Source: Alphaproteobacteria bacterium
GTDB lineage: Bacteria > Pseudomonadota > Alphaproteobacteria > UBA828
Length of the DNA stretch: 64,000 nt
Assembly (NCBI GenBank): GCA_965237415.1
Contig: CBDEFM010000002.1
Span: forward strand, 1,024,001 to 1,088,000
Direction of reading: 5' to 3'
The notes below the pieces were generated by a model. It did not search any database, had not been told where the DNA came from, and saw only the letters and a list, made by a program, of their open reading frames with translations. This document shows, one piece after another, positions 2,476 through 55,469 of this stretch; position 1 is the first letter of the stretch, and every line of letters begins with the position of its first letter. The position numbers and the translations under genes are program-made.

Positions 2476-3678
2476 ATGATGGATCGTTGGTGGGAGAGCC
2501 GGACGGGCGTGCGCACCGCCCTCGCAAACGTGACGCGCCCGATCGAGGAGTGGGCGAGCGGACTGCCGAACGAGGCCTATGTGTCGGACGCCTTCGCCGA
2601 GTGGGAACAGGATGTGCTCCTGGCCCGCACCTGGGCCTGCATCGGCACAGGCAGGCGCGTGCCCGAGGTGGGCGATGCCATGCCGCTCGAATTCGCCGGC
2701 CTGCCGCTCTTCATGCTGCGTGGAAACGACGGCGAGGTGAACGTCTTCCACAACGTGTGCAGCCACCGCGGCATGGTGCTGATGGACAAGCCCACGCGGA
2801 CGCGCGGCGCGATCCGCTGCCCCTACCATTCCTGGACCTACGACCTGGACGGCTCGCTTCGCTCGACGCCCATGATCGGAGGCACCGACAGCCACACGTG
2901 CGAGGGCTTCGAGCGCGCGAAGCATGGCCTGAAGCCGGTTCGGACCGCCACTTGGTTCGACGCCGTGTTCGTCAACCTGAGCGGCGATGCACCGCCCTTC
3001 GAGACCTTCATCGCGCCGGTGGCCAAGCGCTGGAAGGATTTTTGCGGCGCCGACCTGCGCTACGAGGAGAGCGACTCCTCCTTCACCCTGGACGTCGCCT
3101 GCAACTGGAAGCTCGCGGTGGAGAACTTCTGCGAGGCCTATCACCTGCCGTGGATCCACCCCAGCCTCAACAGCTATTCCGGGCTCGAGGATCACTACCA
3201 GATCGCGGAGGAGGAGGACGGCTACGCCGGCCAGGGCAGCACCGCCTACCGGCCGCAGCTCGCGGAAAACAGCAACGGCTTTCCGACCATGCCGGGCCTG
3301 CCGGCGCGCTGGCAGGGGACGGCAGAATATGTCGCGCTGTTCCCGACCGCGCTCTTCGGCGTCCACGCCGACCATTGCTTCGTCGGCACGCTGATGCCGG
3401 CGGGCACCGGGCGCACCATCGAGCATCTCGACATCTACTACTTCGCCGACGAGGCCGTGGGCGAGGGCTGCGCCGAGCTCAGGGAGGCCAACACGCGCCA
3501 GTGGCGCGGCATCTTCGAGGAAGACCGCTTCGTCGTCGAAGGGATGCAGCGTGGCCGCGCCTCACCGGCCTACAAGGGCGGCGTGCTCTCCCCCGTGCTG
3601 GAGCGCACCACCCACGCCTTCTACCGCTGGGTGGCGCGGCAGATGATGGAAGCGACGGAGACCAACGGCGCTCCGTGA
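2476..3678 (+). CDS. Rieske non-heme iron oxygenase alpha subunit (choline/betaine monooxygenase-like)
   Basis: Rieske motif CSH...CPYH, mononuclear Fe motif ENFCEAYHLPWIH and distal EED; start placed at ATGATG 2476. Confidence 0.88.
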   Translation: MMDRWWESRTGVRTALANVTRPIEEWASGLPNEAYVSDAFAEWEQDVLLARTWACIGTGRRVPEVGDAMPLEFAGLPLFMLRGNDGEVNVFHNVCSHRGMVLMDKPTRTRGAIRCPYHSWTYDLDGSLRSTPMIGGTDSHTCEGFERAKHGLKPVRTATWFDAVFVNLSGDAPPFETFIAPVAKRWKDFCGADLRYEESDSSFTLDVACNWKLAVENFCEAYHLPWIHPSLNSYSGLEDHYQIAEEEDGYAGQGSTAYRPQLAENSNGFPTMPGLPARWQGTAEYVALFPTALFGVHADHCFVGTLMPAGTGRTIEHLDIYYFADEAVGEGCAELREANTRQWRGIFEEDRFVVEGMQRGRASPAYKGGVLSPVLERTTHAFYRWVARQMMEATETNGAP

Positions 3679-3693
3679 GCGGCAGGTCTACGG

Positions 3694-4008
3694 TCAAATC
3701 TCGCAGGCGTCGCCGTTGCAGCCCTGCTTGTCGCGTCCGAATAGGGCGCGGATAGGCGGAAGGTAGAGGGCCAGCCCGTAAAGAAAGAATAGGGGAACCT
3801 GCAGGCACACCTTGCGCGTGGCGTAGACGCCGGTGAATGCCCTGCTGCTCTCCTTCTCCACCACCACGATTTCGCCGACGGGGACCGGGCCCAGCGGTGA
3901 ATCGTCCGTCCGCAGCTCGACGCGGCCCAGCCAGTCCATGCGCGCCGTGAGGTTCGCCTGACGGACGCAGTCGGGACAGCGCGGGTTGTAGAAGAGCGCT
4001 ACGGTCAT
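3694..4008 (-). CDS. DCC1/DUF393-like thiol-disulfide oxidoreductase
   Basis: N-terminal FYNPRCPDC (CxxC), small size, C-terminal CNGDAC. Confidence 0.65.
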   Translation of the reverse strand: MTVALFYNPRCPDCVRQANLTARMDWLGRVELRTDDSPLGPVPVGEIVVVEKESSRAFTGVYATRKVCLQVPLFFLYGLALYLPPIRALFGRDKQGCNGDACEI

Positions 4009-31211: not shown

Positions 31212-31417
31212 TGGTGTCCCATTCGAGAATTTCCTGCGCATTCGCAAGGTGTCCCCTCCTCGTCATGGCCGGGCTTGTCCCGGCCATCCACGCCCCTCCG
31301 TCCCGCCTGGCCGATGGAGATGCCCGGAACGAGTCCGGGCATGACGGAGTGAGGGAGTGAGGTCGAAGAGGACTCGTACAGGGTCGAAAGCGTAAGAACT
31401 TCGGAAACGCGGCACTG
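31212..31417. mobile_element. Degenerate MITE copy 1 with internal REP-like double hairpin
   Basis: Ends TGGTGTCCCATTCGAGAATTTCC ... GAACTTCGGAAACGCGGCACTG resemble those of the copy at 34503-34717; internal GTCATGGCCGGGCTTGTCCCGGCCATCCAC...GATGCCCGGAACGAGTCCGGGCATGAC at about 31262-31345. Confidence 0.65.
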
Positions 31418-31418
31418 G

Positions 31419-31680
31419 CCCCGATTTCTCGCCCCGATTGCGGTTACGTTCCGCCGCCCACTTTGGCCTCACGTTAATTCCTATGCGGGATTTGCCGGGA
31501 TTAAGTGGGATTAAGTGGGATAAGTGGGATTCCGAGGGACGGGCGGTGGCCGGCACAGGCCGCGGCCACTCGACAGAGAAGGGCCCTCTCACCGCAACTG
31601 GCGCGCCCTCTCTACCCTCGCACCGCATCGCGTGACGATGACGCGCTCCCCCCGCGCCGTGCAGGGCACCATGGTCCGGG
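31419..31680. repeat. Dispersed non-coding element copy A with 10-bp-period GGGA array
   Basis: GGGA boxes start at 31487, 31497, 31507, 31517, 31526, 31536; homologous in inverted orientation to 55240-55461. Confidence 0.85.
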
Positions 31681-31832
31681 TCGTCGCGCGAGCCTGAAAG
31701 GTCTCGCGCGCGCAAGAAGAGTCACGAGCGGAACGCGCGCGGCACACGTAAAGCGGGCCAAGCCCCAGGCATCGGCCCCGCCGCCGTGGCGCCATGCTAT
31801 CGTGCCGGCGGGGGACAGAGGGGAGACATGTC

Positions 31833-55239: not shown

Positions 55240-55461
55240 CCCGGACCATGGTGCGGTGCATAGCGCGCGGCGGGCGCGTCAGGATTGCGCCATGCAGTGC
55301 ACGAGCGAACCGCCCGCACCCCACGTCATTGCCGCCGCTTGTCCCGGGGAATCCCACTTATCCCACTTAATCCCACTTAATCCCGGCGAATCCCGCATGA
55401 AGAAGTGTGTTGTTCGAGGTGGGACGCGGAACCGGACCGCGAGCGTAGCGAAAAATGCGGG
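55240..55461. repeat. Dispersed non-coding element copy B with 10-bp-period TCCC array
   Basis: TCCC boxes start at 55342, 55352, 55361, 55371, 55381, 55391; fills the gap between convergent recG and DUF1491 genes; inverted homolog of 31419-31680. Confidence 0.85.
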
Positions 55462-55469
55462 TTAGGCGT

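Follow-up and report, generated by a model that had tools for sequence, protein, structure and literature searches.

What are the short, regularly spaced G-rich boxes that occur as two nearly identical tracts in the genome of an alphaproteobacterium of the lineage UBA828, and to which gene do they belong? The question was raised by a window of 64,000 nucleotides, i.e. the whole stretch of DNA analysed here (assembly GCA_965237415.1, contig CBDEFM010000002.1, positions 1,024,001 to 1,088,000). The genome, named G000 in the following, consists of two contigs, C2 of 4.04 Mb and C1 of 0.71 Mb, with 66.7% G+C, and the window corresponds to C2:1024001-1088000. The two tracts, copies A and B, belong to a dispersed family of cassettes and are themselves gene-less; the array of boxes belongs to a gene for a protein like the small terminase subunit (TerS), related to gp27 of phage Mu, and not to the neighbouring host genes. 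The array may be the cognate, pac-like binding track of this protein, within a system resembling the gene transfer agents (GTAs).

The arrays, their cassettes and the linked gene

As described in an earlier note on this DNA, copy A (31483-31533, plus strand) and the reverse complement of 55348-55398 are identical except at one of 51 positions, the sole mismatch (50 of 51 agreeing) being a T/C difference in the first unit. Each copy contains six GGGA boxes with identical spacing (10, 10, 10, 9 and 10 bp), which start at 31487, 31497, 31507, 31517, 31526 and 31536 in copy A and run from 55394 to 55345 on the minus strand in copy B. An identical 15-mer (31666-31680 and 55240-55254) closes both copies about 130-190 bp past the array, and the indel of about 40 bp previously placed between the core and the block with the 15-mer spans 39 columns in the alignment of the two copies. 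Three GGGAT boxes at 10-bp spacing occur four times in the window against 0.04 expected from shuffles, and none of 100 shuffles reaches four.

The tracts had been taken for a two-copy element, and this view was refuted by a scan of the genome, in which an array was defined by at least three boxes: G000 has 66 arrays, on both contigs and both strands. They hold 341 GGGA boxes, from 2 to 13 per array. Most of the 275 units measure 10 bp (202) or 9 bp (69), with a mean of 9.76, and the commonest are GGGATTAAGT (101) and GGGATAAGT (60). The spacing pattern of copies A and B is that of 11 of the 66 arrays. The invariant part of the unit is GGGAT, not TGGG. The strict helical phasing once proposed, with all boxes on one face of the DNA, is in fact loose, given the share of 9-bp units and one array with six consecutive 9-bp spacings. 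The description as a dispersed non-coding element was borne out: 64 of the 66 arrays are intergenic under a conservative gene call, and 51 lie downstream of a host gene that is co-oriented with the direction from R module (see below) to array.

Some known classes of repeats can be set aside. The earlier note had recognised neither a repetitive extragenic palindrome (REP) nor a CRISPR, and rightly so, because the array is a direct repeat, with REP-like palindromic hairpins as separate neighbours, and its units of 9-10 bp abut each other, unlike the 23-50-bp repeats with unique spacers of CRISPR. On the 60 arrays of C2 the GGGA strand is the leading strand in 26 cases and the lagging strand in 34 (tallied by hand), and the coefficient of variation of array spacing, 1.18, lies in the range of 0.80-1.18 obtained under random placement. 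An iteron- or parS-like role, also put forward at first, is not supported by this random placement and lack of replichore strand bias, and a replichore-orienting role of the KOPS type was rejected on the same figures.

Coverage by BLAST matches and profile searches of G000 revealed recurring modules, named L, array and R. The R module (75 blastn matches, 78 profile matches) terminates in the shared 15-mer and lies within 1.4 kb of 64 of the 66 arrays, always in the same orientation and 32-1138 bp downstream (median 134 bp); conversely, an array follows 66 of the 78 R profile matches. R opens with a 16-bp palindrome, which is perfect at a phage-type portal gene discussed below and has one mismatch in copy B. 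Most of the 75 copies have a sharp R end, beyond which unrelated DNA, REP-like hairpins or, in a few cases, an inverted L terminus are found. The L module gave 20 blastn matches and is present at 26 of the 66 arrays by profile search. The full cassette thus reads, in order, R, which is promoter-like, begins with the palindrome and holds the start codon; the gp27-like TerS gene; the GGGAT array, at or just past the 3' end of the gene; and an optional L. The gene is missing from most cassettes, in which R, a short remnant and the array are left.

Copies A and B belong to this second kind: they have no gp27-like open reading frame (ORF) and consist of R, gene remnant, array and L. In copy A a diverged L module followed by an AT-rich spacer (31411-31482, plus strand), identified by alignment to copy B and by an nhmmer match to the L profile at 31411-31466 (C2:1055411-1055466, E 2e-4), precedes the array (31487-31540, plus strand), made of five GGGAT boxes and a terminal GGGAC. 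The middle segment (31541-31609, plus strand) corresponds to the stretch occupied by the gp27-like ORF in long copies, and contains the 39-column indel. The R module (31610-31681, read on the minus strand; blastn and nhmmer matches at C2:1055610-1055681) has an imperfect 16-bp palindrome at 31664-31679, taking in the 15-mer, and the complement of the cassette ATG at 31626-31628. Copy B is oriented the other way and has sharp ends in BLAST coverage near 55240 and 55465. Its R module (55240-55310, read on the plus strand), placed by the repeat boundary at 55240 and by the R alignment, contains the palindrome at 55241-55256, the cassette ATG at 55292-55294 and, at 55280-55285, the hexamer CAGGAT, a candidate -10 element. 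The middle segment (55311-55340), the array (55341-55394) and the L module (55399-55465) follow, all on the minus strand; L opens with TA and a terminus of about 33 bp, common to a separate family of miniature inverted-repeat transposable elements (MITEs) of about 210-300 bp.

The gene was found where the array and R are 590-1138 bp apart: in these copies an ORF on the opposite strand has its ATG inside R and runs toward the array. A search for a copy linked to an ORF with a helix-turn-helix (HTH) had been recommended in the earlier note, and it gave a positive answer, with ten long copies holding a gp27-like ORF (tblastn), all on C2. Four of them, type 1, are clear Mu gp27-like HTH TerS genes, and six, one of which is split, are of type 2. 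The type-1 protein P0001 (233 aa) matches PF11985, Phage_Mu_Gp27, with an E value of 2e-23 and a score of 84 bits (cut-off 28), and also PHROG 426, the family of terminase small subunits, with an E value of 2e-27. The Pfam match stops at residue 183, after which the frame reads through the array (residues 202-217). In the AlphaFold2 model of P0001 (mean pLDDT 73) helices are predicted at residues 24-35, 40-49 and 56-88, followed by long helices, and the N-terminus is HTH-like and well predicted. In the account of phage TerS given in PMC6854486, these proteins have an N-terminal HTH, a central oligomerisation domain and a tail binding the large terminase, and form rings of 8-11 subunits, which are proposed to wrap about 100 bp of DNA. 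No further gp27 homolog was detected in G000 by tblastn with P0001 and the type-2 protein P0002, and none of the ten copies adjoins a large terminase gene; in two Mu-like prophage loci from outside the genus, L038 and L039, the large terminase directly follows the gp27 gene.

Distribution in the genus and the shared R module

Of the genus's 20 other genomes, 17 have genes of the gp27-like family, with 1-17 copies each. Outside the genus they were found in 7 of 300 other sampled genomes of the class, with one or two copies each and about 30% identity. GGGAT arrays, searched as three boxes with spacers of 4-6 bp, occur in 19 of the 21 genomes, with no control match in any of them. The three genomes without gp27-like genes, G012, G015 and G016, have at most three matches to the GGGAT array; the portal gene, too, is missing from G012 and G016. 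At 15 of 17 loci read in relatives within the genus, R lies upstream of the gp27-like gene and short direct repeats of about 10 bp are located at or just past its 3' end; as for the two exceptions, L028 is cut by a contig end and L033 has no repeats in view. The prophage loci L038 and L039 have no array.

The sequence of the repeat is not the same in all these genomes, and comparison of the loci is suggestive of a change of the array motif together with the recognition helix of the protein. Helices of the type SAVGRY.K(N/D/T) are accompanied by ATCCC boxes, and SAVVRYVKG, in G020, by TTGGRCC; SAIARYARR (G002) and SAVNRYVRP (G019) occur with units of the TGTGCC type. The G020 motif is found at eight loci in G020 and gave no matches in G000, G004, G019 and G002. 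In G020, the sole other genome in which gene-less arrays were checked, all three arrays read carry the motif of that genome and have R modules of their own.

Orthologous sites provide an indication of the age of the cassettes. The site of copy B is occupied in G000, G004, G017, G006, G001 and G009; only an R remnant is left in G019, other DNA is present in G003 and G018, and the site is empty in G020 and G002, where 12-14 bp separate the two stop codons. When copy B is compared with its counterparts in G017, G006 and G001, identity amounts to 86-91% in the coding flanks, 83-93% in the array, with gains and losses of units, 84-94% in the middle segment, 80-83% in R and 65-76% in L. The array had been called near-invariant, and this holds among the paralogs of G000 and its nearest relative but not at the orthologous site elsewhere. 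A second gene-less cassette (C2:2361 kb) is occupied in six of six genomes, with from about four decayed boxes (G017, G006) to about 30 (G009). At both sites boxes and spacing are kept, while box number spans 4 to about 30. The site of copy A is common to G000 and G004; in the four others tested, the genes that flank it do not lie side by side.

In G004 the copy B site (L050, about 2600-3800) holds an insert of 1.2 kb with low G+C, which includes a 92-aa ParE/RelE-like ORF and a 171-aa ORF and is bounded by a duplicated part of R. Type-2 genes are also arranged in the order R, gene, R. Taken together, these arrangements suggest that R ends may be places where new cassettes stack.

The R module is not restricted to the cassettes. 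A Mu-type portal gene (PF06074, E 7e-87), isolated from other phage genes by its host-gene surroundings, has R upstream; 2 kb upstream of the portal lies the gene for a Mu-like large terminase (Terminase_6C, E 2e-19; tblastn E 7e-62 to the terminases of Mu-like loci), which in G000 is accompanied by an R-like module and not by a TerS gene. R is also found upstream of two head-protease loci, the first continuing with a scaffold and a major head protein, the second with a tail terminator, major tail protein, chaperone, short tape measure, minor tail protein, J-like fibre and collar fibre. The head, tail and large terminase genes were examined in G000. The portal was followed further: at 84-96% identity it recurs in 16 of the other 20 genomes of the genus, mostly as a single copy, and R precedes it at the same position in all five other loci read. 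This conservation makes the phage-derived gene set look like a domesticated, GTA-like particle system. The fixed position of R before these genes points to a putative promoter; scans around copies A and B gave no sites for sigma-70 promoters or intrinsic terminators.

Two further ORFs were noticed in the same regions. A 450-aa protein with RTX calcium-binding repeats is encoded between the Mu-like large terminase and the portal (C2:1228074-1229426). At both head-protease loci the same 96-aa ORF, without any family match, lies in DNA of lower G+C about 200 bp upstream of R (C2:24122-24412 and near C2:1133.4-1133.7 kb), and is a candidate regulator.

A proposed pac-like track and competing explanations

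Boxes that lie one helical turn apart, stand beside the gene and differ according to the recognition helix are consistent with a binding track comparable to pac and cognate to the TerS-like protein. Both binding and packaging are predicted from sequence, and we consider the chances of this interpretation evenly balanced. One HTH domain of a ring-shaped TerS oligomer would dock on each box, as at the pac or cosB site of a phage, and the protein would assemble along the array. Of the roles listed in the earlier note, a multimeric protein-loading site is the best reading here too. As the large terminase has no TerS gene beside it, the scattered cassettes would supply TerS in trans, and they would mark dozens of chromosomal sites at which a GTA-like particle, if produced, could start packaging host DNA. 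Since only scattered gp27 homologs were found, and R is common to the large terminase, portal and head-protease operons, a GTA-like machine with dispersed TerS/pac cassettes would be the simplest model at the level of the whole system.

Small terminases bind the R sites of lambda cosB and the pac site of SPP1. In these phage sites several short sequences for an oligomeric HTH-bearing TerS are located in or beside the TerS gene and are specific to the cognate protein, a pattern which the arrays, at the 3' end of a TerS-like gene and differing with its recognition helix, would share; here, instead, the sites form a tandem array of 9-10-bp units, are present about 66 times on the host chromosome and are mostly without the gene, and their binding and cleavage are predictions. 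The HK97 cos:TerS complex offers an example of a packaging site bound by a small terminase, as reported in PMC10370121. Among GTAs, that of Rhodobacter capsulatus (RcGTA) resembles the present system in that phage-derived head, tail and packaging genes are conserved in a bacterial lineage and split over several loci, according to PMC6854486, and the conservation of the portal in the genus agrees with the vertical inheritance of structural genes expected of a GTA. The same paper states that RcGTA TerS is devoid of a DNA-binding domain, a loss said to explain random packaging, and that no discrete packaging start sites are known for GTAs. Conversely, the TerS-like protein described here, known from its genes, keeps the HTH, is multi-copy and has dispersed cognate arrays; moreover, the genes are Mu-like (portal PF06074, gp27) rather than HK97-like.

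Another parallel comes from phage satellites. In packaging redirection of the Staphylococcus aureus pathogenicity island (SaPI) type, the satellite encodes a TerS with its own pac site. Similarly, a TerS variant paired with the site it recognises could make a shared large terminase act on new DNA; unlike SaPIs, the cassettes have no integrase, replication or capsid-remodelling module, measure about 0.25-1.3 kb and are scattered.

Several observations weigh against a pac-like function. The type-2 protein P0002 reaches 27.1 bits with PF11985, just below the 28-bit cut-off, and an E value of 4e-7 with PHROG 426, and the HTH region is disrupted in all six type-2 genes. A fold search with P0001 against the PDB gave no match at E <= 0.001, with Sf6 TerS at rank 18 (E 2.7), and a profile search of PDB sequences yielded no solved homolog. 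The dN/dS ratio among the four type-1 paralogs, 0.35-0.82, indicates moderate constraint only. The arrays show random placement and no replichore bias, and those at the orthologous sites of G017 and G006 are short, with signs of partial decay. The lineages behind the pairing of motif and helix are few and related, which leaves the co-variation without statistical weight, and a motif specific to one genome could also be explained by amplification from a single master copy. Finally, gene-less cassettes keep R as well as the array, a feature left unexplained by a pure pac role.

A broader scenario can be proposed more tentatively, and we would sooner doubt than accept it. A domesticated Mu-like GTA may have kept an HTH-bearing, sequence-specific TerS and seeded the chromosome with at least 60 cognate pac arrays, each with the inducible promoter of the system. 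Packaging would proceed from defined sites round the genome, and the recognition helix and all arrays would co-evolve as one specificity system, a route opposite to that of RcGTA. If true, this would be a second, previously unrecognised route to host-DNA transfer, with a maintained sequence-specific TerS and dozens of matching sites, as well as a natural case of a protein and its sites co-evolving in about 20 species, in which the arrays predict the map positions of packaged DNA ends. Even if the packaging idea fails, the cassette family accounts for a large share of the intergenic repeats of the genus, and the flanks of a gene are shown to persist at orthologous sites after the gene itself has gone. 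Cassettes of this kind were not found described in literature searches with the exact unit string and with the terms small terminase, GTA, Mu-like and DUF3486, subscription journals being outside their coverage.

The main rival is selfish amplification with slippage, which we regard as unlikely but well worth weighing. It holds that the cassettes are, or were, non-autonomous mobile elements, that the array is a subterminal mobilisation repeat or a slippage-prone satellite, and that its uniformity derives from recent amplification of a master copy and gene conversion, not from present function. The cassettes do resemble MITEs, REPs and bacterial interspersed mosaic elements in being small, intergenic, modular and high in copy number, with REP-like hairpins interleaved, and the fast change in unit number and the empty sites in G020 and G002 would be expected of such elements. 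However, the constant modules, R and array, are the 5' and 3' flanks of a gene family, and two gene-less cassettes are kept at orthologous sites in six species, with array, middle segment and R more conserved than L. The termini give a mixed answer. The proposal of a non-autonomous mobile element, already made in the earlier note, gains from the 26 arrays whose L end has the TA-flanked inverted-repeat terminus of the MITE family, with TA before it in most of the 20 aligned L modules, and from the inverted terminus present also beyond R in some copies. It loses from the 40 arrays without the L terminus and from copies A and B, where the terminus is on the L side only, unrelated DNA lies past R and, in copy B, no TA is found at the R end; a few copies have both termini. 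As for a possible mobilising enzyme, the genome has 11 IS630-type DDE_3 matches, but all of them are more than 3 kb away from any such terminus, and the search for a matching transposase found none.

The MITE family, whose terminus is the start of the L module, consists of elements of the length given above with inverted termini and TA duplications, and is represented at C2:588858-589133, 1387963-1388234 and 2762000-2762277 and by about a dozen more. A cluster of IS630-type transposase genes, including three identical ORFs of 379 aa, is located at C2:3.62-3.82 Mb, in a stretch of 350 kb without any GGGAT array.

The alternatives that follow are weaker than the pac-track interpretation. One of them, rather improbable in our opinion, is that the gp27-like protein is a DNA-binding regulator or nucleoid-type factor without any packaging role, with the arrays either titrating it or governing transcription nearby. 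A protein with an HTH whose own gene is accompanied by cognate-looking repeats would suit a regulator, the gene-less cassettes keep a promoter-like module aimed at the array, and 51 of the 66 arrays are found downstream of a co-oriented host gene. On the other hand, the family is annotated as small terminase, the large terminase is without an adjacent partner gene, and it is R again that stands before the portal, large terminase and head-protease operons, for both head and tail.

Far less probable is an action at the RNA level, in which R would drive a short RNA with C-rich repeats complementary to the boxes, and these repeats would serve as RNA sponge or antisense RNA. R does precede genes at a fixed distance and is directed into the array, and metatranscriptome contigs cover the array; nevertheless, the array-to-flank depth ratio is similar in RNA and DNA runs, which indicates no expression beyond copy number. 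In public runs, taken in contig form, the array bins have about 50-100 times the depth of the flanks in DNA and RNA alike, as expected of a collapsed repeat. A structured RNA, another of the early candidates, was not supported, as there is no excess of secondary structure on either strand (fold z-scores of +0.63 and +0.17 for copy B). Rfam offered no explanation: there were no matches at gathering score in the window, and a permissive search of both copies returned only a mammalian long non-coding RNA model, with an E value of 0.36. In addition to the lack of promoter and terminator consensus already mentioned, a short ORF that runs through copy B is not conserved in G017, whose array lacks 10 columns of the alignment.

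The least credible reading is a site for a host protein, i.e. MraZ, whose operator consists of TGGGN direct repeats at 10-bp spacing, or a G-quadruplex formed by G3 runs with loops of 6-7 nt: AAGT-GGGAT boxes contain TGGGA at the right spacing, the genome's own mraZ upstream region (L080 1130-1190, C2) has TCCCAT, TACCAT and TCCCAT at 10 bp, and the arrays of G000 fit the G3N1-7 pattern by eye, but mraZ is present in five of five genomes tested, including G012, G015 and G016 with almost no arrays, G000, G020 and G019 share the repeats upstream of mraZ whereas their arrays are completely different, the arrays track gp27-like lineages, TGGG is not the invariant part of the unit, and the G002 and G019 motifs are without G3 or C3 runs.

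Neighbouring genes and other repeats

Copy A is flanked by the gene for a PLP-dependent decarboxylase (minus strand) and by a short-chain dehydrogenase gene (plus strand), whereas copy B is located between the convergent ends of recG and a DUF1491 gene. A REP-like GC-rich hairpin (31682-31722, without assigned strand) abuts the R end of copy A; it belongs to a separate repeat family with about 28 genomic copies by blastn coverage and is outside the cassette proper. Hairpins of this kind, about 30-40 bp long and often in tandem, are found between array and R or just beyond many R ends, and the family is apparently read as peptide repeats inside type-2 gp27-like ORFs. A tandem repeat of about nine copies of the 9-bp unit GGGGAACCT, unrelated to the GGGAT family, is present at C2:1679752-1679840 of G000. 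Within the window, at 31250-31360, another short palindromic repeat with paired GCCCGG/CCGGGC arms has dozens of matches in relatives, many of them in G003.

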